A DNA stretch of 53,094 bases, taken from assembly GCA_001795695.1 (NCBI GenBank), contig MGKO01000004.1, positions 1-53,094 of the forward strand. Reading direction: 5' to 3'. A program made the translations under genes and the position numbers. The notes beneath the pieces were generated by a model. That model was not told the DNA's origin. It saw nothing but the letters and a program-made list of their open reading frames with translations, and made no database searches. The first letter of the stretch is position 1, and each line of letters starts with the position of its first letter. Shown here piece by piece: positions 4,636 through 46,824 of the stretch. Source of the DNA: Candidatus Yanofskybacteria bacterium RIFCSPLOWO2_01_FULL_49_17. GTDB taxonomy: Bacteria > Patescibacteriota > Minisyncoccia > 2-02-FULL-40-12 > GWA2-44-9.

Positions 4636-4950
4636 ATGGCATCAAATATACAAAAAATAGTAGATACAATTGTGAGGGAGTTTAAGCCTGAAAAGGTTGT
4701 ACTTTTTGGCTCACACGCATGGGGTATTCCGAAGGAGAACAGCGATATAGATTTGCTGGTTCTTAAGAAGGACAAAAATAAAAACACTCGTGAGATGTCT
4801 ATTGATTTAGAGCGTTTATTGGCAAACCGAAACGTACCCCTTGATATATTAGTATATAAACCCGATCAAGTGGAAAAAAGGTTGCGGATAAACGATCCCT
4901 TTTTAACAAAGATTTATAAGGAAGGGAAGTTATTGTATGAACAAAAATAA
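4636..4950 (+). CDS. Nucleotidyltransferase-domain protein (MNT-type antitoxin)
   Basis: NTase motif LFGSHAWG..SDIDLLV. The track ORF starts at TTG 4615; the ATG at 4636 is preferred. Confidence 0.75.
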   Translation: MASNIQKIVDTIVREFKPEKVVLFGSHAWGIPKENSDIDLLVLKKDKNKNTREMSIDLERLLANRNVPLDILVYKPDQVEKRLRINDPFLTKIYKEGKLLYEQK

Positions 4951-5335
4951 GGACATATGTCTTGAATGGGTTGCGAAGGCAGATGAAGACCTACGTTCAT
5001 TAGAGTCGCTTCTTAAACACAAAGAAGGTTCTCCTTCTACTGGTTGCTTTCTCGCTCAACAGGCGGTAGAAAAATTATTCAAGTCATTGCTGGTACTGCA
5101 CGGAGCTGAACTTGAAAAAGTCCATGATTTAATCGTGCTTCTTAATAAAATAAAAATTTATCAGCCGGAAATAGAAAGATTTCTCGATAAGATTTTAGTT
5201 CTTACTCGTTATTATATTGAAACAAGATATCCGGGAGATTATCCAGAGTTTACCTGGGAAGAATGCAAACGGGCATTTAATACCGCAGCAGAAATAGTGG
5301 AGTTCGTTAAGGAATCTGTATTTAAGTTTGCATAA
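4937..5335 (+). CDS. HEPN-domain protein (toxin partner of MNT)
   Basis: Overlaps the MNT gene by 14 nt. Helical protein with the ETRYPGDY motif typical of HEPN. Confidence 0.7.
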   Translation: MNKNKDICLEWVAKADEDLRSLESLLKHKEGSPSTGCFLAQQAVEKLFKSLLVLHGAELEKVHDLIVLLNKIKIYQPEIERFLDKILVLTRYYIETRYPGDYPEFTWEECKRAFNTAAEIVEFVKESVFKFA

Positions 5336-6228
5336 TGTCCCAATATATCGACGATAAAAAAGTGGAAGAGTTGGAAACGAAGGCTAATGAAGCGCGGGAG
5401 CTTTTGATTGAGATGCTGACGGAGGCGGGGTCGGGGCACACGGCCGGTCCTTTGGGTATGGCCGATATTTTTACGGCATTGTATTTCCATGTCTTGAATC
5501 ACGATCCGAAAAATCCGGAGATGCCGGAGCGGGACAGATTAATTTTGTCCAACGGACACATCACGCCGATACGATATGTTGTGATGGCGATGTCGGGATA
5601 TTTCCCGATTGAAGAATTAAAGACATTGAGAAAATTTGGCACGCGCCTGCAGGGACATCCAGAGCGTGAACGATTACCCGGCGTGGAGACGACCTCCGGA
5701 CCGCTTGGTTCGGGTCTTGGTCAAGCTTGTGGTATCGCCTACGCGGCAAGAATTGACGCTAAGAAATTTAGAACTTATTGTCTGATGTCTGACGGGGAGC
5801 ATGACTCGGGGGCGCTCTGGGAATCAGTCATGTTCGCCGGCAAAAATAAATTATCAAATCTGACGGGTATTATAGACCGCAACAATATCCAGATAGACGG
5901 CATGACCGAGGACGTGATGCCATTGGAAAACCTGCGCGCAAAATACGAGGCATTTAACTGGCACGTTTTAGAAATAGATGGAAATAATATAGAAGCGTTT
6001 GTGGACGCGACACATGAAGCGGCGGCCATCTTTGAGAAACCGACGGTTATCATCGCCCATACTATCCCAGGCAAGGGCATCAAAGAAATTGAGTTTGATT
6101 ACCGCTGGCACGGCATTGTTCCGGGGATGCAGGACGTTCCCGGGGCGCCTTCTAAGGCAGAACAATCTAAAAAATTCTTGGATGAATTACGAACGTTAGG
6201 TGGTAGAATAAAAAGTGAACACCAATAA
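5335..6228 (+). CDS. Transketolase, N-terminal (TPP-binding) subunit
   Basis: Motifs GSGHTAGPLGMADI, LSNGH, SDGEHDSG, IIDRNNIQIDG. Confidence 0.9.
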   Translation: MSQYIDDKKVEELETKANEARELLIEMLTEAGSGHTAGPLGMADIFTALYFHVLNHDPKNPEMPERDRLILSNGHITPIRYVVMAMSGYFPIEELKTLRKFGTRLQGHPERERLPGVETTSGPLGSGLGQACGIAYAARIDAKKFRTYCLMSDGEHDSGALWESVMFAGKNKLSNLTGIIDRNNIQIDGMTEDVMPLENLRAKYEAFNWHVLEIDGNNIEAFVDATHEAAAIFEKPTVIIAHTIPGKGIKEIEFDYRWHGIVPGMQDVPGAPSKAEQSKKFLDELRTLGGRIKSEHQ

Positions 6229-6311
6229 TTAAAAATTTTAAATTTTGAATTATTAATTTTTAAAAATTTGAAAATAATAATTAATAATTTTTGCAAAGGG
6301 GGTGTTGTTAT

Positions 6312-6560
6312 ATGATGCAAAGCGATAATTGCAAATGTCCGCATCATAGTGTAGCAAAGCTCATAGGTCTGTTAGTGTGGGTCTCGGGCGTGCTGTTCTT
6401 CTGGTCCGCTTTCGCGGGACGGACTTTCTGGGACCTGGACGCGTTATTCTGGGCCTGGTCGGTAGTTGTTCTGTTCCTGTTGGCCAAGTCCATGCGTGGC
6501 GCTTGCCGGTGCTGCTGCGGAGAGAAGCACTGCCAAACTTGCCAGGTCAAACCGATGTAA
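6312..6560 (+). CDS. Small Cys/His-rich membrane protein (2 TM) between the two transketolase halves
   Basis: SD-like AAGGGGGTG lies 8 nt upstream of ATGATG. The ends CKCPHH and CRCCCGEKHCQTC flank two hydrophobic helices. Confidence 0.45.
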   Translation: MMQSDNCKCPHHSVAKLIGLLVWVSGVLFFWSAFAGRTFWDLDALFWAWSVVVLFLLAKSMRGACRCCCGEKHCQTCQVKPM

Positions 6561-6673
6561 ATTAGGAAAGCTCTAAACTCTAATATCTAAATCCTAAATA
6601 AATTTAAAATCCAATTTTCAGGTTTTGAACTTTGGTTATTATTTAGGGTTTAGGATTTAGTGCTTAGAATCTT
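6561..6673. repeat. H7 heptamer-periodic hairpin filling the spacer up to the tkt-C start codon
   Basis: Arms ctctaaactctaatatctaaatcctaaataa / ttatttagggtttaggatttagtgcttagaatc. Confidence 0.65.
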
Positions 6674-7672
6674 ATGTTAAATAGCGAAGCTAAACTAATA
6701 CCAGATATTACTAAACCCGAATATATACCCACCAGAGATGGTTATGGCAAGGGCGTGGTTAAAGCGGGGGATAAAGATGAGCGGGTGGTCGTGCTCTGCG
6801 CCGACCTGACCGAGTCCACCCGGTCTTTGTGGTTCAAAGAGAAATTTCCGTCTCGTTTCATTGAAATGGGGGTGGCCGAGCAGAACCTGGCTTTGGTCGC
6901 CTCGGGTATGGCCAACTACGGCAAGATTCCCTTCATCTCTTCATACGCCACTTTCAGTCCCGGCCGCAACAATGAGCAGATACGGACCAATATCACCATC
7001 AATAATGTGCCGGTGAAGATTGTCGGCGCCCATGCCGGAATTTCCGTCGGTCCCGACGGGGCCACCCACCAAGCGCTAGAAGATATCGCCTTAATGCGGG
7101 TCCAGCCGAGAATGGTTGTGGTAGTGCCATGCGACGCTGTTGAGGCGGAGAAGGCGACTTTCGCCGCGGCATTCAACAATCAACCAACATATATCCGCGT
7201 TGGCCGTGAGAAGTCGCCCGTTTTCACGACTGCCGACACGCCGTTTGAAATAGGAAAGGCAATTGTTTTGAGAGACCTGCCTGCCGGCAGGCAGGCGGCA
7301 AACACCTGTGCGATAATTGGCTGCGGGATGCTTTTGCATAACGCCCTTTTGGCGGCTGAAGAACTAATGAGCGAGGGGATTGAGTGCATGGTCATCAATT
7401 CACATACCGTCAAACCTTTGGATGAAAAAACAATAGTTGAAGCGGCGCAAAAAACCGGAGCGGTGGTAAGCGTGGAGGAGCATCAGATCGCCGGCGGACT
7501 TGGTTCGGTCGTGGCCGAATGCCTGTCCAAAAACTATCCGGTGCCGCAGGAATTCATAGGCATTCAGGACCGTTTTGGAGAATCAGGCAAGTCAGAAGAG
7601 CTTATTGAGGTCTTTGGACTGGGTAAAGAATCAATAAAATCGGCCACCAAGAAAGCTATATCCAGGAAATAA
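6674..7672 (+). CDS. Transketolase, C-terminal subunit, with an in-frame LPAGRQ palindrome
   Basis: Motifs FIEMGVAEQN, GPDGATHQALEDIA, plus the C-terminal domain. Confidence 0.9.
   Translation: MLNSEAKLIPDITKPEYIPTRDGYGKGVVKAGDKDERVVVLCADLTESTRSLWFKEKFPSRFIEMGVAEQNLALVASGMANYGKIPFISSYATFSPGRNNEQIRTNITINNVPVKIVGAHAGISVGPDGATHQALEDIALMRVQPRMVVVVPCDAVEAEKATFAAAFNNQPTYIRVGREKSPVFTTADTPFEIGKAIVLRDLPAGRQAANTCAIIGCGMLLHNALLAAEELMSEGIECMVINSHTVKPLDEKTIVEAAQKTGAVVSVEEHQIAGGLGSVVAECLSKNYPVPQEFIGIQDRFGESGKSEELIEVFGLGKESIKSATKKAISRK
7276..7295. repeat. Palindrome P1 inside tkt-C (encodes LPAGRQ)
   Basis: CCTGCCTGCCGGCAGGCAGG, read in frame as gac CTG CCT GCC GGC AGG CAG gcg. Confidence 0.95.
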
Positions 7673-8352: not shown

Positions 8353-9903
8353 TTAGGATAAAATGCGCGAGTAGTTCAGTGGTAGAACGCCTAACTGATA
8401 ATTAGGAGGTCCCAGGTTCAATCCCTGGCTCGCGCACCACGTTGGAAAAGTCAATGCCTCGCCCCGCCTTCGGCGGGTCTCGGCGACCAAATCGTACGGA
8501 TTTTTCGGGGCAAAAAGAAATTCCCGATTCCGTAAAATATGGTTCGAGCCGATGTTTTTCAGAAATGTTGTCATTTCGGAAAGATTTTCTGATTCAAGCA
8601 GATTAGCGGCTTGATTTAAGGACTTTACGAACTCACGAGCCGGTTCGAGCCAAGACAACCCTTTTGTCTCAAAGTCGGTAATTTTTTCGGTTAACTCGAT
8701 CTTTTGTGAAATGAGAATGTCTTTTTTAGCGGCGTATTCTCGTTGAGTAAGAGCGTCATCGAGATATACGTCAAGCAACTTTTGAAGTTTTGCTTCCATC
8801 TGTGATAATTGCTCTTTGAGATTTATAACTTCACTTTTGGCTTGTTCCTTTGCTTCGGTTTCTTCCGTATCCAACGCCGCCAAAACTTTCTTGGTGTCTT
8901 GGCTCGACAAAGAAACTTTTTGAAGGAAGTTTTTGATTTGAACGATAAGCTGATTTTCACCGAGATACTTTTCTTGGCACGTGCCTCGCTTCTTGGTACA
9001 GCGGTAGTAAGTGTATATACCTCCGTTGCCTTTCGCATATTGCGCAGTTATCGAGCAACCGCACGAGGCGCATTTCATAAGGCCAAGAAAAGGAAAGTTG
9101 TGTTTTCTGTCTGGGCGAATCTTGCCACGCTTAGTCATAACCTCTTGGCACAAATCAAAAAGTTTCTTTGAAATTAACGGCTCGTGTGTTCCCTCAAAAA
9201 CTTCCCCTTTGTATCTCATCAAACCAATGTAAAAGGGATTTTGGAGAATATGCTGAACATTGCTCAATGAGATTTTGTTTCCGGCATTTGTGAGCAGTTT
9301 CTTTTTCTCACACCAATTTGCGAGAGAGTTGAGTGGATATGCTCCGGTGGCGTACATCTCGAAGATTTTTCTCACTAAAGGAGATTTATCTTTATCAACA
9401 TCAATCCCTCTAGTTTTGGGATTATTGGAATATCCTACCGGAGCCCAGCTTGGCCACACTCCATTTCGTATCTTTTGGCGTAGTCCTCTTTTCACATTCT
9501 CTCGCAAATTGTCTACAAAATACTTCGATTGTCCAAAAGCAATGTTCAGCATAAATAATCCTTGCGGCGTTGGCTCAAACCAGAAGCAGGGAAATTTGAG
9601 GGAACGAATCAAGCCGCGATCCACGAAGTGAATAATCTTTCCACCGTCCACAGAATTACGCGCTAACCTGTCGGGGTGCCAAGAGATTATCCCGTCCGCT
9701 TTCCCTTGTTCCAACAATGACAACATTTCTGCGAATTTAATTCGCCCGGGTTCTTTTGCGGTTTTGGCCTCTTGGAAAGAGGCAACAATTTCAAGTTTTT
9801 CTTTGGCGGCAAATTCTTTGAGCTCAACAAGTTGAGCTTCAATGGAGAGAACTTGTCGGTCGTCTTCCTCGGTACTTTTTCTTGCGTAGATAATGTATTT
9901 CAT
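8353..9903 (-). CDS. Large serine recombinase (resolvase catalytic domain + recombinase domain + zinc ribbon + coiled coil)
   Basis: Motifs YARKSTEEDDRQVLSIEAQ (catalytic Ser), DRLARN, CASCGC..YYRC zinc ribbon, and a long coiled coil. The last ~60 codons run through repeat X and the antisense of tRNA-Ile. Confidence 0.85.
   Translation of the reverse strand: MKYIIYARKSTEEDDRQVLSIEAQLVELKEFAAKEKLEIVASFQEAKTAKEPGRIKFAEMLSLLEQGKADGIISWHPDRLARNSVDGGKIIHFVDRGLIRSLKFPCFWFEPTPQGLFMLNIAFGQSKYFVDNLRENVKRGLRQKIRNGVWPSWAPVGYSNNPKTRGIDVDKDKSPLVRKIFEMYATGAYPLNSLANWCEKKKLLTNAGNKISLSNVQHILQNPFYIGLMRYKGEVFEGTHEPLISKKLFDLCQEVMTKRGKIRPDRKHNFPFLGLMKCASCGCSITAQYAKGNGGIYTYYRCTKKRGTCQEKYLGENQLIVQIKNFLQKVSLSSQDTKKVLAALDTEETEAKEQAKSEVINLKEQLSQMEAKLQKLLDVYLDDALTQREYAAKKDILISQKIELTEKITDFETKGLSWLEPAREFVKSLNQAANLLESENLSEMTTFLKNIGSNHILRNREFLFAPKNPYDLVAETRRRRGEALTFPTWCASQGLNLGPPNYQLGVLPLNYSRILS
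8365..8439 (+). tRNA. tRNA-Ile (anticodon GAU), CCA encoded
   Basis: Cloverleaf GCGCGAG/CTCGCGC, anticodon stem CCTAA/TTAGG, loop CTGATAA, T arm CCAGG-TTCAATC-CCTGG, ACCA end. Confidence 0.9.
8440..8533. repeat. Arm X (attL side), inverted copy at 9949-10042
   Basis: 94 nt with 1 mismatch between copies. Contains the hairpin CCCGCC-TTCG-GCGGG. Confidence 0.9.
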
Positions 9904-9925
9904 AGTTTTTTGTTAATTAATGATT

Positions 9926-10214
9926 AAAATTTTTCTTTTCTGCTTCTAACGGAATCGGGAATTTCTTTTTGCCCCGAAAAATCCGTACGATTTGATCGCC
10001 GAGACCCGCCGAAGGCGGGGCGAGGCATTGACTTTTCCAACGTGGTGCAGAATACTTGAATTAGTCCGAACCGCTTTCGCCGCCTGCGGCGGCGAGGAAG
10101 TCCCCCCGCGAAAATCCGGAAAGGCGGCGGAGCCGCACGAATCAAAACCGCAAAAGAACCCGTTAAAAACATCGGCTCGAACCATATTTTGTAGAAGCAG
10201 AAAAGAAAAATTTT
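9926..10214. repeat. Internal attP-like segment bounded by perfect 23-bp inverted repeats
   Basis: The sequence aaaatttttcttttctgcttcta (9926-9948) is the reverse complement of 10192-10214. The interior is X' + TGGTGC + Y + a 26-nt block (10165-10190), and that block is the reverse complement of 8534-8559. Confidence 0.85.
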
Positions 10215-10362
10215 CATAAGGATTCTTAATGCAAGAACTCATCGAGTTTCTTTTTTATTTTGGCTTGATTTTTATTAACATTTCAGCTAATGTAACTTTG
10301 GTATTAAGCTCGATTGTCGGGCTTAAATCGTACATTCCCAACTAAAGAGAGGAGAAATACGC

Positions 10363-11265
10363 ATGGAATTACAAACTGAAGTCGCAGGCATTCGATTGGA
10401 ACATCCACTGATGAACGCAGCGGGAACATGCAAGATGTTGGAGGACGTGAAAGAGCTTTCGCGTTCAGCCACAGCGGCGGTCATGGTCGGCTCAATCACT
10501 GTGGAGCCGAGGACTGGCAACGCTGGCGATGTCTACTGGGCAGGACCGATGTTCTCGCTCAACTCGCTCGGTCTTCCGAATCGCGGTGCGCCGTATTACA
10601 GAGAGGTACTTCCCGAGATGGTCGCGGTGGCTCACGGCGAAGGCAAGCCACTTTTCGTGAGTGTGGCTGGCTTCTCACCAGAGGAGTACACAGACCTCAC
10701 GGAGTTGGCGTTCCGTGGCGGGGCAGACCTCGTGGAGCTGAACCTCGGCTGTCCCAACGTGTGGCAAGGCAGCGCGCAGAAGCGCATCGCGTGTTTCGAT
10801 CCGGCACTGGTCGCAGAAGTGCTACGCCGTGTCGAGGAGAGAGTCGGAGCCGACATGAAAGTTTCGGTCAAGATTTCTCCTTTCTCAGACCCTTTCGCAC
10901 TTGCCGAAGTGGCGCAGGTCATCGGCGCATCGAAAGTGGCGAAGGCCGTCACAACGGTGAACACCTTCCCTAACGCGTTCAGCTACAACGGCGCGAAGCC
11001 GAGAATCACGCCGGGTGGTGGCCTTGCTGGATTCGCCGGACCAGCGATGAAGCCGATCGGTCTCGGACAAGTCAGGCAACTTCGCGGACTTCTCCCGGAG
11101 CACATTCAGATCATCGGTGTCGGTGGCATCACGCACGGTCAGGACATTCAGGAGTATCGCGAGAGCGGTGCAGTAGCAACGCAAGTAGCCACCGCCTATC
11201 TCGAGCGACACGAGCAGGTGTTCAGTTCGTTCCTCGGCGAGCTCCTCGAAGTCGCGAGCGAATGA
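10363..11265 (+). CDS. pyrD: Dihydroorotate dehydrogenase, class 1A-like
   Basis: Motifs NAAGTCK, SLNSLGLPNRG, NLGCPNV (catalytic Cys), KISPF, IIGVGGITHGQD, plus SD GAGAGGAG. The gene is visibly GC-richer than its flanks; the ORF track shows 181-aa and 170-aa shadow ORFs in other frames. Confidence 0.8.
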   Translation: MELQTEVAGIRLEHPLMNAAGTCKMLEDVKELSRSATAAVMVGSITVEPRTGNAGDVYWAGPMFSLNSLGLPNRGAPYYREVLPEMVAVAHGEGKPLFVSVAGFSPEEYTDLTELAFRGGADLVELNLGCPNVWQGSAQKRIACFDPALVAEVLRRVEERVGADMKVSVKISPFSDPFALAEVAQVIGASKVAKAVTTVNTFPNAFSYNGAKPRITPGGGLAGFAGPAMKPIGLGQVRQLRGLLPEHIQIIGVGGITHGQDIQEYRESGAVATQVATAYLERHEQVFSSFLGELLEVASE

Positions 11266-11420
11266 ATCGCTCGCAGAAAATCGTCCCAACGGGACGCACA
11301 TTGGAAACAGTGTACGTCCCCTTTCTTTTTCAAAGAACAAAGAATTTGCCGCCAAGACCGAAATTCGGTAGAATTTCAGTAATCCGAATTCCGCCAAAGA
11401 AAAACTTGAAATTGTCAGCG

Positions 11421-11522
11421 GTGCGGCTCCGCCGCCTTTCCGTCCGCCAGCTGGCGGATTCGCGGGGGGAGTTCCTCGCCGCCACAGGCGGCGAAAGCGG
11501 TTCGGACTAATTCAAGTATTCT
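11421..11522. repeat. Arm Y' (attR side), inverted copy of 10049-10138, carrying a palindrome insertion
   Basis: Reverse complement of Y except for 2-3 substitutions and the 14-nt insert tccgccagctggcg at 11443-11456. Confidence 0.85.
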
Positions 11523-11541
11523 GCACCAGTAGTAAAATTTC

Positions 11542-11614
11542 GGGCCCGTAGCTCAGTTGGTAGAGCACCTCATTTGCAATGAGGGGGTCAGCGGTCCGAA
11601 TCCGCTCGGGTCCA
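11542..11614 (+). tRNA. tRNA-Ala (anticodon UGC), no encoded CCA
   Basis: Acceptor GGGCCCG/CGGGTCC with the G3:U70 identity pair, anticodon loop TTTGCAA, T arm GCGGT-CCGAATC-CGCTC. Confidence 0.9.
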
Positions 11615-11627
11615 CAAAGAATAAAAC

Positions 11628-44628: not shown

Positions 44629-44994
44629 ATGTTGCAACTACGTTCAATAGTAGAAGTGGCGGACAATTCAGGCGCAAAACGCGTCGGCATTTTCAAAGTG
44701 CTTGGCGGCTCGCGCCGGCGCTACGCCCAGATCGGAGACATTGTCGTCGCTTCGGTCAAAGTGGCCGAGCCGCGCAAAAGCGTCAAGAAAAAAGATGTGG
44801 TGAGGTGCGTCGTTGTCCGCCAGAGAAATCCCTACCGCCGCAAGGACGGCACTTATGTCCGTTTTGACGCCAACGCGGTGGTTCTGTTGGACGGCATGGA
44901 GCCCAAAGGCGGACGCATCTTCGGACCGATACCGAGGGAAATTAAAGAAAAAGGGTTTAACACGATTGCTTCGCTCGCTAGCGAACTTGTATAA
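44629..44994 (+). CDS. rplN: Ribosomal protein L14
   Basis: ADNSGAK....KVLGGS.RRYA.IGD. Confidence 0.95.
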   Translation: MLQLRSIVEVADNSGAKRVGIFKVLGGSRRRYAQIGDIVVASVKVAEPRKSVKKKDVVRCVVVRQRNPYRRKDGTYVRFDANAVVLLDGMEPKGGRIFGPIPREIKEKGFNTIASLASELV

Positions 44995-44995
44995 C

Positions 44996-45100
44996 CCCGT
45001 TAGAAATCACGAACAACCATGAAAAAAATGATAAATAACCAAATAAACCAGACCAGCCACCGTTTCAAAACGGTGGACGGATTGTTTGATTTCTAACGGG
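44996..45100. repeat. T2 element copy a (105 nt, TIR CCCGTTAGAAATCA / TGATTTCTAACGGG)
   Basis: Identical to 46029-46133 and 46321-46425. Starts 1 nt after the rplN stop and ends at the rplX ATG. The inner hairpin CCACCGTTT-caaa-ACGGTGG is present. A 25-codon mini-ORF spans 45019-45096. Confidence 0.9.
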
Positions 45101-45406
45101 ATGAAGATTAAGAAGGGCGACAACGTGAAAATGCTGGGCGGGAAAGACCGGAACAAGACCGGCAAGGTTTTGGCCGTGATGCCTGCCGAAAATCTGCTGG
45201 TCATTGAGGGTTTAAATCTTGTTAAAAAACATACCCGGGCCAGAAAGCAGGGCCAAAAGGGACAGATCATCCATAAAGAACGGGCTGTCAGCGCGGCCAG
45301 TGTTGCTCTTGTCTGCAGGTCTTGCGGTAAGGCGACCCGCGTCGGCTATAAACTGACCGGTGACGCGAAAATCCGTGTTTGTAAAAAGTGTCAATCCGAG
45401 ATATAA
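45101..45406 (+). CDS. rplX: Ribosomal protein L24
   Basis: MKIKKGDNV.....KD..KTGKV. The MISNG prefix in the track is translated T2 repeat. Confidence 0.9.
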   Translation: MKIKKGDNVKMLGGKDRNKTGKVLAVMPAENLLVIEGLNLVKKHTRARKQGQKGQIIHKERAVSAASVALVCRSCGKATRVGYKLTGDAKIRVCKKCQSEI

Positions 45407-45490: not shown

Positions 45491-46036
45491 ATGACTAGCT
45501 TACTGCAAAATTACCGAAAGAACGTCATTCCTGCCCTACAGAAAGAGTTTCATATTGGCAACGCTATGGCTGCGCCCAAGATCGTCAAAGTTACGATCAA
45601 TACCGGTGTCGGGAGATTTGCCAAAGACGACAAAACCCTGGAGCGTATTGCTAAGGACATAGCCATACTTTCAGGCCAAAAGCCGGTCTTCCGGGCGGCC
45701 AAAAAGTCCATCGCCAGTTTTAAGGTCCGGCAGGGCGTGCCAGTCGGTATTTCGGTCACTCTCCGCGGCCAGCGCATGTATGACTTCATCAGCCGTCTGA
45801 TAAATATCGCATTGCCCCGCTCCAGGGACTTTCGCGGGATTGAAACGAAGAACATAGACCGGAACGGCAATCTGAATCTCGGTCTGCGCGAGTCCAGCAT
45901 TTTCCCGGAGCTCAATTATGAGAATATGAAAGACATTTTCAGCTTGGAGGTTTCAGTCACCACCACGGCCAAGACCCATGAGCAGGGCGTGGCATTATTA
46001 AAGCACTTAGGTTTTCCAATCAAAAAATCCCGTTAG
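45491..46036 (+). CDS. rplE: Ribosomal protein L5
   Basis: PKIVKVTINTGVG and FRGI....D..GN.N.G. The stop codon TAG is supplied by the T2 terminal repeat. Confidence 0.95.
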   Translation: MTSLLQNYRKNVIPALQKEFHIGNAMAAPKIVKVTINTGVGRFAKDDKTLERIAKDIAILSGQKPVFRAAKKSIASFKVRQGVPVGISVTLRGQRMYDFISRLINIALPRSRDFRGIETKNIDRNGNLNLGLRESSIFPELNYENMKDIFSLEVSVTTTAKTHEQGVALLKHLGFPIKKSR

Positions 46037-46133
46037 AAATCACGAACAACCATGAAAAAAATGATAAATAACCAAATAAACCAGACCAGCCACCGTTTCA
46101 AAACGGTGGACGGATTGTTTGATTTCTAACGGG
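46029..46133. repeat. T2 element copy b
   Basis: 100% identical to copy a. Ends at the rpsN ATG. Confidence 0.9.
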
Positions 46134-46319
46134 ATGGCCAAAAAATCCACAATTGCCCGTTCCAATAAGAAGCCCAAGTTTTCTACCCGAACAGTCAGGC
46201 GCTGTTTCCTGTGCGGCCGCAAGGGCGGCTACATCGGCAGATTTGGTCTCTGCAGAATCCATTTTCGTGAATTGGCCAGTGCCGGACTTTTACCCGGAGT
46301 TAAAAAATCAAGCTGGTAA
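46134..46319 (+). CDS. rpsN: Ribosomal protein S14, zinc-binding short (type Z) form
   Basis: C.LCGR..G....[19 protein letters not shown]. Confidence 0.9.
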
Positions 46320-46320
46320 T

Positions 46321-46425
46321 CCCGTTAGAAATCACGAACAACCATGAAAAAAATGATAAATAACCAAATAAACCAGACCAGCCACCGTTTCAAAACGGTG
46401 GACGGATTGTTTGATTTCTAACGGG
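46321..46425. repeat. T2 element copy c
   Basis: 100% identical to copies a and b. Ends at the rpsH ATG. Confidence 0.9.
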
Positions 46426-46824
46426 ATGGACCCAATATCAGACATGCTCAACCGAATAAAGACCGCTTCAATGGCCCGTCAAGACCAGGTGATGATGCCG
46501 TTCTCAAAGATGAAATTAGCGATAGCCGATGTTCTTTTGAGTGCAGGATACATTTCCGGCGCAGAGAGAAAGAGCAAGAAACATAAAAAATCAGAGCATG
46601 AATACCTACTTATAGGATTGAAATACAACGACGGGACATCAGCCATCTCCGGTATTAGGATGATCAGCCGGCAGTCCCGACGGATGTACCTGACGGCTGA
46701 TGAGATAAAACCGGTCCGTTCCGGTCACGGTCTGGCCATCCTCTCCACCTCCAAAGGAGTGATGAGCTCCCGTGATGCCCGCAAACAGCATGTCGGCGGA
46801 GAGATAATTTGTGAAATCTGGTAA
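46426..46824 (+). CDS. rpsH: Ribosomal protein S8
   Basis: DPISDMLNRIK and GGEIICEIW. Confidence 0.95.
   Translation: MDPISDMLNRIKTASMARQDQVMMPFSKMKLAIADVLLSAGYISGAERKSKKHKKSEHEYLLIGLKYNDGTSAISGIRMISRQSRRMYLTADEIKPVRSGHGLAILSTSKGVMSSRDARKQHVGGEIICEIW

Follow-up and report, generated by a model that had tools for sequence, protein, structure and literature searches.

The window analysed here, a stretch of 53,094 nucleotides from a Candidatus Yanofskybacteria contig, was shown to contain an element of approximately 3.1 kb between a tRNA-Ile and a tRNA-Ala gene, consisting of a serine recombinase gene on the minus strand and a pyrD gene on the plus strand (Table 1). The full recombinase ORF (8353-9903, minus strand) encodes 516 aa with the domains Resolvase, Recombinase and Zn_ribbon_recom. 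The N-terminal catalytic domain of a large serine recombinase (LSR) was recognized as PF00239 at residues 4-150 (E 9.8e-22), with the motif YARKST and S10 as the serine nucleophile nearly invariant among 32 homologues, and PF07508 (E 7.5e-20) and PF13408 (E 5.9e-08) follow C-terminal to it, as in LSRs. The protein matched SPbeta integrase (PDB 9dxh, 5.5e-12), the C-terminal domain of A118 integrase (4kis, 3.9e-07) and the phrog_95 integrase profile (2.5e-83). CcrB, CcrA and CcrC were among the best NCBIfam matches, with scores far under the equivalog cut-offs (CcrB 104 bits against 900, CcrA 80 against 700), and the recombinase was not assigned to any of the three. More than 7600 homologues were found, bearing Patescibacteria names. 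Besides the cargo gene, which has a GC content of 0.60 compared to approximately 0.45 in its surroundings, the 3.1 kb contain no further gene; neither an RDF gene nor a replication gene was detected.

Table 1. Features of the element and its flanks (positions in the window)
Feature	Position	Strand	Evidence or remark
tRNA-Ile(GAT), target gene	8365-8439	+	ARAGORN; Rfam tRNA 75.8 bits
LSR, conserved part, residues 1-490	8434-9903	-	Pfam PF00239, PF07508, PF13408
X arm, attL side; minus strand encodes recombinase residues 458-488	8440-8533		Inverted repeat with 9949-10048; in 38/41 related loci
blk26, codons 449-457 (KNIGSNHIL)	8534-8559	-	Perfect 26-nt inverted copy at 10165-10190; copies co-vary across elements
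blk36 (9785-9820, codons 28-40), hairpin and blk20 (9747-9766, codons 46-53) in the recombinase gene	9747-9820	-	
Recombinase 5'-UTR block, left arm of 23/26-nt inverted repeat	9923-9948		Inverted-repeat search
Internal inverted attP-type junction X'-core-Y'	9949-10138		Position conserved; arm identity at least 97% in most relatives
Putative sigma70-like promoter over internal junction, toward cargo module	10028-10056	+	-35 TTGACT in X', 17-nt spacer with core, -10 AATACT in Y'
Sense copies of blk20 (10143-10162), blk26 (10165-10190) and UTR block (10192-10217)	10143-10217	+	
pyrD, class-1 dihydroorotate dehydrogenase, cargo gene	10363-11265	+	Pfam PF01180 1.4e-41; NCBIfam
blk36 sense copy (11338-11355 and 11391-11415)	11338-11415	+	Interrupted by 35-nt insertion 11356-11390 with 7-nt duplication
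Y arm and attR core GCACCA (11523-11528)	11421-11528		Inverted-repeat search
tRNA-Ala(TGC), right flank	11542-11615	+	13 nt past attR; ARAGORN

The attL core corresponds to the last bases of tRNA-Ile (GCACCA, 8434-8439). The original prediction had placed an inverted Y'-core-X copy between the recombinase and pyrD, and this copy was found where it had been placed, composed of X' (9949-10042), the core TGGTGC (10043-10048) and Y' (10049-10138); it is identical in sequence to the attP that excision would create. The inverted repeats of about 100 bp around the recombinase and about 90 bp around pyrD that had been described were likewise recovered, as 8434-8533/9949-10048 (X and core; 100 nt, 99%) and as 10043-10112/11459-11528 (70 nt, 97%) together with 10117-10138/11421-11442 (22 nt, 100%). 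The attR-side Y contains a 13-nt palindromic insertion (11443-11455) that is missing from the internal Y'. Chance is ruled out for these repeats because exact inverted repeats cluster at the element: 12 of the 63 repeats of at least 13 nt in the 53-kb window, including all long ones, fall into the 8-10 kb bin. By eye, the Y-proximal and X-proximal half-sites showed no convincing dyad symmetry, and no known RNA family was detected in the internal site (Rfam). The two copies of the arms are approximately 98.4% identical, which site-specific exchange alone cannot maintain; a further homogenizing process is needed.

The att core lies within the recombinase gene, where it forms codons W489-C490. 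These are the last two conserved codons, and the ORF is therefore without a stop codon of its own. Past the core, a non-conserved tail of 26 aa, ASQGLNLGPPNYQLGVLPLNYSRILS, is read from antisense tRNA-Ile down to 8353, and the same frame over the internal junction reads RILELVRTAF...EKFS. The predicted lack of a stop ahead of the core, the read-through into antisense tRNA-Ile and the RILELVRTAF alternative were thus all confirmed. Alignment of homologues, proposed as a means to locate the natural stop, showed conservation up to ...LTFPTWC followed by a different tail in each protein, the tails representing diverse antisense tRNA sequences. A conserved stop codon mutated in the window copy is ruled out, since the homologues show none before the core. 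The tail PLFENARTFF of P0031 was considered as a Y'-type tail and rejected, as the P0031 element has a degraded arm and occupies a site other than a tRNA. A likeness to SSV-type elements had also been suggested. As in the SSV1-type (fusellovirus) integrases, the crossover lies inside the recombinase ORF and integration alters the 3' end of the gene; however, those are tyrosine recombinases whose gene is split and inactivated, whereas all three domains and every conserved residue of the present enzyme are located upstream of the core, so that exchange affects nothing but the non-conserved tail past residue 490 and leaves the enzyme whole.

An empty tRNA-Ile site (L221) was found in a 99% identical host. 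It reads ...ctcgcGCAC followed by AAATT, showing that the final CA of tRNA-Ile in the window comes from the element. Downstream of it, L221 and the window differ in sequence. Natively, tRNA-Ile is therefore not followed by tRNA-Ala, and the copy in the window has undergone rearrangement. A plain insertion into a tRNA-Ile-tRNA-Ala spacer is ruled out by the other flank of L221 and by two loci that hold the halves of the window in other contexts, one with the same recombinase module and another cargo (L215) and one with the same pyrD cassette and a recombinase truncated exactly at blk36 (L210). Assemblies of the same strain were all in the orientation of the window. The 3' ends of tRNA genes are the target in approximately 50 loci, with many different tRNAs occupied, and attR of related elements frequently retains just GCAC or CCAC of the core.

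A search for the same architecture near homologues had been proposed, and it was found in 38 of 41 related loci from many Patescibacteria lineages and unrelated projects, with recombinases 62-90% identical; it characterizes a very large family in this group. The inverted X copy was present in 38 of the 41, in 31 of those with at least 97% identity. Arm sequences vary between elements, yet they match within each. The Y arms of the related loci lie 830-2200 nt apart around differing cargo, and element size is 2.5-3.5 kb. Cargo is different in every related element and includes transporters, methyltransferases, proteases, radical-SAM proteins and secreted proteins. Many related contigs end at X or Y arms, which indicates that the repeats trouble assemblers and could be taken to favour an assembly artefact, the internal copy deriving from amplification chimeras or from the mis-joining of the excised with the integrated form. 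Such an origin is effectively refuted, and we regard it as extremely improbable: L212 (99.98%) and L216 (99.97%), assembled independently from other samples, are colinear with the window over attL, the internal site and attR, and the layout recurs in unrelated projects with arms that follow the individual element. No published description of such elements was found in the literature searched. Tycheposons, elements of Prochlorococcus, mostly carry tyrosine recombinases.

Several natural variants were identified among the relatives. A swap of the tail by flipping had been predicted, and a recombinase reading into Y' was found on a full contig assembled with a k of 127, longer than the arms (P0051/L081), as well as on five further fragments (P0124, P0170, P0174, P0175, and P0188). 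A census of the flipped state with a protein query made of the C-terminus and Y' gave only short ORFs and fragments and is a qualitative result, not a count. The cargo module is flipped in L174, in agreement with the predicted inversion geometry, and cassette arrays or recombinase-less cassettes are present in L090, L129, L131, L217, and L218. The recombinase was flipped in none of approximately 50 autonomous elements from an unbiased metagenome sample and in none of 34 genome loci, and the orientation skew of the recombinase module exceeds 50:1. Circle-type junctions were absent from the 97 that could be classified, and no contig with a circle junction was found. The comparison made earlier with the flip-flop of the 2-micron plasmid (Flp/FRT) would hold for the geometry of the inferred circle, in which two inverted site-bearing copies of approximately 195 bp would divide two unique segments, one of them with the recombinase. 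An equilibrium flip-flop of the 2-micron style is not shown, because the orientation is strongly skewed. Besides, the 2-micron plasmid is a replicon with a tyrosine recombinase, Flp, equimolar isomers and inversion for copy-number amplification, whereas the present element is integrated, has a serine recombinase and contains no replication gene.

The internal junction may double as a promoter for the cargo. The hexamers listed in Table 1 are assembled only across X'|Y' and are absent at attL, and the -10 hexamer keeps A2 and T6 in 31 of 31 elements (TATTCT, AATACT, GATAAT and others) despite different Y sequences. This raises the alternative that the element is mainly a phase-variation switch of the host, in which inversion toggles expression of cargo or recombinase relative to the junction and tRNA promoters in the manner of an inverton, mobility being secondary. 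The restriction of the promoter to the junction, the many cargo ATGs placed directly after the UTR copy without a promoter of their own and the existence of flipped cargo modules agree with this. On the other hand, a sigma70-like promoter and a terminator are present within the pyrD cassette and many others, mobility of the elements is clear from the many different tRNAs occupied and the known empty sites, and flipped states are rare among assemblies. We consider a switch of this kind unlikely.

The nearly fixed orientation would also suit a static relic, the internal site being an unused fossil left when a recombinase unit and a cassette derived from it were fused or rearranged, with RecA-dependent gene conversion keeping the arms alike. 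In line with this, arm mismatches resemble random mutation, without wobble bias, and four elements (L005, L073, L024, and L046) persist although their internal site has been lost or degraded. However, the site and its core are intact in most elements, even in those with recombinases only 62% identical, the promoter-like hexamers are retained at the junction despite differing Y, and the breakpoints of flipped, swapped and stacked variants fall exactly at the cores. A relic is, on this evidence, quite unlikely.

Each cargo cassette is framed by non-coding copies of four short segments of the recombinase, and these copies co-vary with the gene. In the window, perfect inverted copies are found at 9747-9766/10143-10162 (20 nt), 9785-9809/11391-11415 (25 nt), 9803-9820/11338-11355 (18 nt), and 9926-9948/10192-10214 (23 nt; 26 nt at 96%). 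The last of these repeats and the 26-nt block at 10165-10190 had been described before as perfect copies, the latter of the KNIGSNHIL codons, which is correct; they do not, as had been supposed of the 23-bp repeat, bound an inserted copy but belong to the conserved set of recombinase blocks framing the cassette. The order and spacing of the blk20, blk26 and UTR copies are the same in approximately 30 related loci, and the UTR block stands ahead of the cargo in every element, where in many cases the cargo ATG comes right after it. The 35-nt insertion in blk36 was also found in L014 and L002, and L003, L011, L019, and L026 contain another hairpin insertion at the same place. An apparent remnant ORF at 10143-10194 (KTAKEP-V-KNIGSNHIL-stop) was rejected, its frame not being conserved because the linker length varies between subfamilies.

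Within the recombinase gene, synonymous variability in blk26 is 0.25 compared to a gene mean of 0.62. A hairpin with a 7-bp stem (9767-9783, codons 41-46) is 98.3% paired, with 85 double-change cells (0/500 shuffles), and two intragenic inverted pairs of 16 nt each were found (8560-8575/9716-9731 and 8908-8923/9155-9170). The compensatory hairpin and the long-range pairings 58-63/443-448 and 245-250/327-332 in the gene, the position of the blocks as unpaired segments between its helices, their identical circular order in the cassette and the frozen synonymous sites within them are consistent with a putative single-stranded role of arms and blocks, either as panhandle RNAs of modules sharing the UTR-blk36-blk20-blk26 junction or as an ssDNA transfer form in which the two attP copies, being inverted, pair to form a single duplex site. 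Against this, neither strand shows a G.U preference among the mismatches of the X and Y arms, and selection for an RNA panhandle on these arms was rejected for this reason; block-to-block pairings cannot be nested in any state; no Rfam family was matched; and cutting of a dumbbell stem by a serine recombinase would be expected to give hairpin-capped chromosome ends. A single-stranded role is accordingly judged very unlikely. A leader antisense RNA against the recombinase was also rejected, since the order is unfit for simultaneous pairing and block pairs cross in every state.

We therefore interpret the locus, with a probability of about 70%, as belonging to a miniature two-module type of integrative cassette element of Patescibacteria, of which the window has one copy in the configuration that predominates. 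The recombinase module is organized as core-X-UTR-rec-X'-core and the single-gene cargo module as core-Y'-blk20-blk26-UTR copy-cargo-blk36-Y-core, with the internal X'-core-Y' as the joint between them. The insertion site is a tRNA 3' end, with strand exchange probably falling within C72-A73-C74, and the CCA end is restored by the element. Because the core forms its last two conserved codons, the enzyme borrows its stop codon and a short tail from the sequence past the core, which is antisense tRNA-Ile here and would be Y' in the circle or after inversion. The three cores alternate in orientation. The direct outer pair would serve excision and integration, and the neighbouring pairs are inverted, so that recombination there would flip the recombinase module or the cargo module; recombination between elements would lead to swapped or stacked cargo modules. 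The common state, in which recombinase and tRNA are convergent and recombinase and cargo divergent, is probably quiescent. In the flipped state, the recombinase would lie downstream of the tRNA and the UTR, blk20, blk26 and blk36 blocks would become direct repeats, which may delete the recombinase and leave the recombinase-less cassettes found at the same site. The anatomy and its conservation throughout the family, the target, the empty site, the variability of the tails and the natural flipped, swapped, stacked and recombinase-less variants were all observed directly; we infer the catalysis of each event by the recombinase, the exact exchange dinucleotide, the activity of the promoter and the cause of the orientation bias.

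Canonical phage LSRs recombine attP with attB only, and attL with attR only together with an RDF; inversion between attP and attL is not known for them. This canonical behaviour and the lack of an RDF gene in the element count against the mechanism, as does the rarity of the flipped recombinase, known from five fragments and a single full contig. Judging from the natural variants, the enzyme may recombine more than one pairing of sites without a directionality factor.

The closest known system is that of the SCC/Ccr cassette elements. SCCmec and ECC, the cassette chromosomes of staphylococci and enterococci, are also LSR-driven integrative cassettes; they lie at the 3' end of one conserved housekeeping gene, occur as tandem arrays and recombinase-less cassettes at one site and encode no separate directionality factor. 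The present elements share 3'-end insertion, arrays and recombinase-less cassettes, but their target is the 3' end of tRNA genes and not rlmH, they are 2.5-3.5 kb in size with one cargo gene, and they differ by the internal inverted att copy, the inverted arms around each module, the core within the recombinase ORF and the cassettes framed by recombinase-derived blocks. In common with the serine invertase switches Hin, Gin, Cin and Pin, a serine recombinase is combined with inverted sites and with cis elements within its coding region, and the 5' part of the gene, which holds the enhancer in those systems, holds blocks and the hairpin here. Those recombinases are small, depend on Fis and the enhancer and are not mobile, whereas here an LSR, which has recombinase and zinc-ribbon domains, is encoded within an invertible module. 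Engineered phiC31 exchange (e.g., MiMIC) also uses a cassette between two inverted serine-integrase att sites that can be swapped in either orientation; it is synthetic and based on attP and attB pairs, in contrast to the natural hybrid X/Y arms and tRNA target found here.

Integron cassettes resemble the cargo modules in being promoter-less or self-contained single-gene cassettes, in forming arrays at one site and in depending on one recombinase and a platform promoter. Integrons differ by a tyrosine recombinase (IntI), attI, single-stranded attC hairpins and a platform that is not itself a mobile cassette; here, a serine recombinase, a tRNA target and inverted duplex arms of approximately 100 bp ending in a tRNA-like core were found. 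It is possible, if doubtful, that these elements are a serine-recombinase counterpart of the integron in Patescibacteria. A promiscuous LSR would then insert, in many different tRNA genes and with no need of an RDF, at the A73-C74 step, and cassettes would be scaffolded on co-evolving recombinase fragments (the UTR and codons 28-40, 46-53, and 449-457), which together with the intragenic helices might form a single-stranded structure or recognition platform governing both the choice of core pairs (integration, inversion, or cassette exchange) and the expression of recombinase and cargo.

For annotation, the element accounts for the erratic C-termini of these recombinase genes, for 'hypothetical proteins' of approximately 100 aa called over the internal site and for contig breaks beside tRNAs in these genomes. 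For recombinase biology, it presents an LSR that targets the universal tRNA 3' end, has an ORF ending in host DNA, seemingly acts on several site pairings without a directionality factor and contains cis elements in its own coding sequence, which matters for designing integrase tools. The genomes of candidate-phyla-radiation bacteria are tiny, and few routes of gene transfer are recognized for them. Because even very distant lineages have recombinases of 74-91% identity and nearly every copy of the element contains a different single gene, it is plausible that the element is a major vehicle of gene flow in Patescibacteria.

The element was found between a tRNA-Ile(GAT) and a tRNA-Ala(TGC) gene and consists of two modules: a recombinase module (core-X-UTR-recombinase-X′-core) and a cargo module (core-Y′-blk20-blk26-UTR copy-cargo-blk36-Y-core). 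X/X′ and Y/Y′ are inverted att arms, the core is GCACCA, and blk20, blk26, blk36 and the UTR block are short segments of the recombinase gene. The cargo in the window is pyrD, with a GC content of 0.60 vs about 0.45 in its surroundings. The left junction (attL) reads tRNA-Ile...GCACCA-X and the right junction (attR) Y-GCACCA-gtagtaaaatttc-tRNA-Ala. The internal site between the modules reads, in reverse complement, Y-GCACCA-X, and is thus identical to the attP expected from excision. The internal attP-like copy, the inverted repeats and the 26-nt KNIGSNHIL block of the original prediction were thereby all recovered in the window.

Features of the element and of its surroundings in the window
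Feature	Position	Strand	Details
HEPN ORF	4937-5335
Split transketolase	5335-7672		N- and C-half ORFs
Recombinase ORF	8353-9903	-	516 aa; Resolvase, Recombinase and Zn_ribbon_recom domains
tRNA-Ile(GAT)	8365-8439	+	tRNA gene call
X plus core inverted repeat	8434-8533 / 9949-10048		100 nt, 99%
blk26, codons 449-457 (KNIGSNHIL)	gene 8534-8559; copy 10165-10190		26 nt; copy is the reverse complement of 8534-8559
Long-range inverted pair, codons 58-63/443-448	9716-9731 / 8560-8575		16 nt, perfect; inside recombinase ORF
Long-range inverted pair, codons 245-250/327-332	9155-9170 / 8908-8923		16 nt, perfect; inside recombinase ORF
blk20, codons 46-53	gene 9747-9766; copy 10143-10162
Hairpin, codons 41-46	9767-9783	-	GCCTCTT-TCC-AAGAGGC, 7-bp stem; inside recombinase gene, between blk36 and blk20
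blk36, codons 28-40	gene 9785-9820; copy 11338-11355 plus 11391-11415		copy split by 35-nt insertion
5′-UTR block	gene side 9923-9948; copy 10192-10217
Perfect inverted repeat	9926-9948 / 10192-10214		23 nt
ORF across internal site	9992-10219	+	annotated as hypothetical protein
Sigma70-like promoter over internal junction	10028-10056	+	-35 TTGACT in X′, -10 AATACT in Y′
Y′/Y inverted repeat, first part	10043-10112 / 11459-11528		70 nt, 97%
Y′/Y inverted repeat, second part	10117-10138 / 11421-11442		22 nt, 100%
pyrD	10363-11265	+	between tRNA-Ile and tRNA-Ala
Insertion in blk36 copy	11356-11390		35 nt
tRNA-Ala(TGC)	11542-11615		tRNA gene call
Short GC-rich palindromes	4530, 7276, 23664, 39567; and 11443, 14755, 21347		CCTGCCTGCCGGCAGGCAGG and TCCGCCAGCTGGCGGA
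122-nt repeat	44993-45114, 46026-46147, 46318-46439		three direct copies, 93-100% identical

L212 (99.98%) and L216 (99.97%), assembled independently from other samples, were colinear with the window over all three junctions, which excludes an assembly artefact. A protein search yielded 7667 proteins with E-values up to 0.001 among 8000 candidates scored. The best 120 of these showed 72-91% identity to the window recombinase, and their source names were mostly Patescibacteria/CPR (Adler-, Kuenen-, Moran-, Lipton-, Brenner-, Jorgensenbacteria and others), a few being labelled just "bacterium" or by function. The same architecture was present near homologues, as 38 of the 41 loci with enough upstream sequence have an inverted copy of the final ~100 nt of the gene (with the core) 30-85 nt upstream of the recombinase start codon. 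In 31 of these 38 the copy was at least 97% identical to the end of its own gene, though the sequence differs between elements. A Y arm (~90-100 nt) beyond the internal core had its inverted partner 830-2200 nt away, with one cargo gene, different in almost every locus, between the Y arms; complete elements measured 2.5-3.5 kb. The X and Y arm pairs were about 98.4% identical, and their mismatches showed no G.U bias on either strand, which argues for homogenisation at DNA level and against selection for RNA pairing.

The recombinase ORF was confirmed to run without a stop into the core, both in the window and in the homologue alignment, which was almost invariant through ...LTFPTWC and completely divergent beyond (homologue lengths 486 to 656 aa). 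The alternative, a conserved stop before the X arm that is merely mutated here, was found in none of the homologues. At 80 genome loci the codons TGG-TG(C/G) were followed by the antisense sequence of many different tRNAs, and the antisense of the T-arm makes up typical tails (xxESNLRP, WESNPH and similar); thus, the core is the tRNA 3′ end and the recombinase gene by itself always lacks a stop codon. At present the tail is ASQGLNLGPPNYQLGVLPLNYSRILS; reading through the internal site would give RILELV...EKFS (56 aa), and the excised circle RILELVRTAFAACGGEELPPRIRQLADGKAAEPHR. The predicted swap of the tail by excision or inversion is real; as neither the sequence nor the length of the tails is conserved, it is probably neutral.

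A contig of a 99% identical host, L221, carries an unoccupied tRNA-Ile gene ending ...ctcgcGCAC|AAATTAAAAATTCCC, with a terminator hairpin after it. Target and element thus share GCAC, or CCAC in other subfamilies. Many attR junctions retain just GCAC/CCAC, and strand exchange would take place inside the C72-A73-C74 stretch of the tRNA gene. The element provides the remaining CA, so that a tRNA gene without encoded CCA becomes one with CCA. The downstream flank of the empty site in L221 did not match the right flank of the window. Contig L215 contains UDG-tRNA-Ile with the recombinase module and internal site of the window, with a different cargo and right flank, and L210 contains the pyrD cassette-tRNA-Ala-RmuC (99.55% identity), to the left of which lie a recombinase gene truncated exactly at blk36 and then other cassettes. 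As L215 and L210 hold the two halves separately, the window copy is itself the product of element or cassette exchange. A pyrF gene was found near the truncated recombinase gene in L210. The tRNA-Ile site is polymorphic in the same or closely related hosts, being empty (L221), occupied without recombinase by two different cargos (L217 and L218) or occupied by the recombinase with another cargo (L215). A common non-standard target, antisense VYCTKLEPIFK (GGTTCGAGCTTGGTACAATA...CACCA), was observed in L017, P0014, P0018, P0072, P0090, P0211 and L090 (~229-262); ARAGORN made no tRNA call there, and a tRNA-like gene or some other small RNA gene is possible.

Sense, non-coding copies of four short recombinase segments frame every cargo module. 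These copies vary between elements at synonymous positions, yet agree with the gene of their own element, and synonymous variability was 0.21 in blk36, 0.25 in blk26 and 0.32 in X vs 0.62 on average over the gene. In the cassette the blocks follow the order 20, 26, UTR, cargo, 36, a circular permutation of the gene order (UTR, 36, 20, 26), and the UTR copy and blk36 form the exact limits of cargo variability. Candidate explanations for their upkeep and function are binding of recombinase or regulator, a shared single-stranded junction, and homology for rearrangement. Across 67 relatives the codon 41-46 hairpin showed compensatory changes altering even amino acids (ASFQEA, ASLCEA, ASFEEA...), with 98.3% pairing and 85 double-change cells, a value reached by 0 of 500 shuffles. 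Both long-range pairs were conserved and co-varying in relatives and located at dips in synonymous variability; pairing of codons 58-63/443-448 brings blk20 next to blk26. The insertion in the blk36 copy of the window carries a 7-nt duplication (ccgccaa) and was also found in L014 and L002, while L003, L011, L019 and L026 have a different, two-hairpin insertion at this position.

The junction promoter has a 17-nt spacer with the core inside, and exists solely where X′ joins Y′, with none comparable at attL. At its -10 position A2/T6 were kept in 31/31 elements, with a varying hexamer (TATTCT, GATAAT and others), and in many elements the cargo ATG directly follows the UTR copy, without another promoter. 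Annotated "hypothetical proteins" of 70-110 aa across the internal site comprise about 100 protein clusters (P0126-P0190) and read M-RNREF...TWC-SILELVRTHFAACGGEE...; one subfamily re-reads KNIGSNHIL in frame. The DNA repeats account for the conservation of these ORFs, and nothing was found to indicate that they encode a real protein.

We consider it probable (about 0.7) that these are integrative two-module cassettes with the following mechanism. The recombinase would integrate a small circle, in which two inverted hybrid sites connect a recombinase and a cargo module, at tRNA 3′ ends. Integration would consume one hybrid site to give attL and attR and leave the other as the internal copy. 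The outer, direct cores would then permit excision, neighbouring inverted cores flipping of either module, and cores of different elements cargo exchange and stacking. Natural variants show all these outcomes (exchange, stacking, flipping and excision), with the cores as breakpoints. In the common state the recombinase gene points towards the tRNA and away from the cargo, into which the junction promoter is directed, and this state may be quiescent and stable. A flipped recombinase gene would lie downstream of the tRNA promoter with the four blocks turned into direct repeats, recombination between which would delete it. The recombinase-less L217 and L218 (window's host; tRNA-Ile|X-UTR-cargo) and L210 are consistent with this deletion route.

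The predicted REARRANGEMENTS were found among natural variants, but they were rare. In L081, assembled at k=127, which exceeds the arm length, the recombinase gene is flipped and co-directional with the cargo, reads X′-core-Y′-blk20-blk26 and encodes P0051 (a cluster of 11 sequences); all blocks are direct repeats. Besides, the recombinase 3′ end continues into Y′ in five further contig fragments (P0124, P0170, P0174, P0175 and P0188). The cargo module is inverted relative to the recombinase gene in L174, and short X′-WC-Y′-stop ORFs also point to flipped cargo. Cargo modules flank the recombinase gene on both sides in L090, and L131 and L129 are cassette arrays without recombinase starting at a tRNA-Leu 3′ end. 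Of 126 X′|Y′ junctions sampled without bias from metagenome contigs, 50 were canonical (recombinase divergent, blk20 side), 1-2 had flipped cargo beside the recombinase gene, none had a full recombinase gene reading into the junction or was a circle junction, and the rest lacked a recombinase gene or ran into a contig end. No flipped orientation was found among 34 genome loci with a located internal core. Thus, inversion and exchange do happen, but a balanced flip-flop is unsupported.

Short GC-rich perfect palindromes recur in the window and look like tiny palindromic insertion sequences. One lies in frame within the transketolase C-half ORF (LPAGRQAA), another is a 13-nt insertion that splits the outer Y arm only, between its 70-nt and 22-nt parts, and similar insertions were seen in Y′-derived ORFs of other elements. 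The self-complementary 122-nt repeat is MITE-like and intergenic, with 16-nt terminal inverted repeats (ATCCCGTTAGAAATCA). Directly upstream of the transketolase N-half lies a HEPN/nucleotidyltransferase pair, of which the nucleotidyltransferase partner was observed in L215 and L216, contigs from the same host; this arrangement is ordinary for these genomes.

By its domains and solved relatives (SPbeta and A118 integrases; also phrog_95) the recombinase is a large serine recombinase (LSR), and its best curated matches, CcrB, XisF, CcrA and CcrC, were all far below cut-offs. The likeness to 2-micron first suggested holds for the geometry, but not for the tyrosine recombinase or the balanced isomers; that to SSV-type integrases holds for the intragenic core, but not for the tyrosine recombinase or gene disruption. 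A full-text literature search, which does not cover all journals, gave no description of these elements. The functionally nearest system is the SCC/Ccr cassette chromosome, which shares with the element an LSR, a housekeeping-gene 3′ end, arrays, recombinase-less cassettes and no RDF. We file the element as a kind of LSR integrative cassette element; a more radical and rather unlikely reading would make it the serine-recombinase counterpart of an integron, with a scaffold derived from the recombinase.
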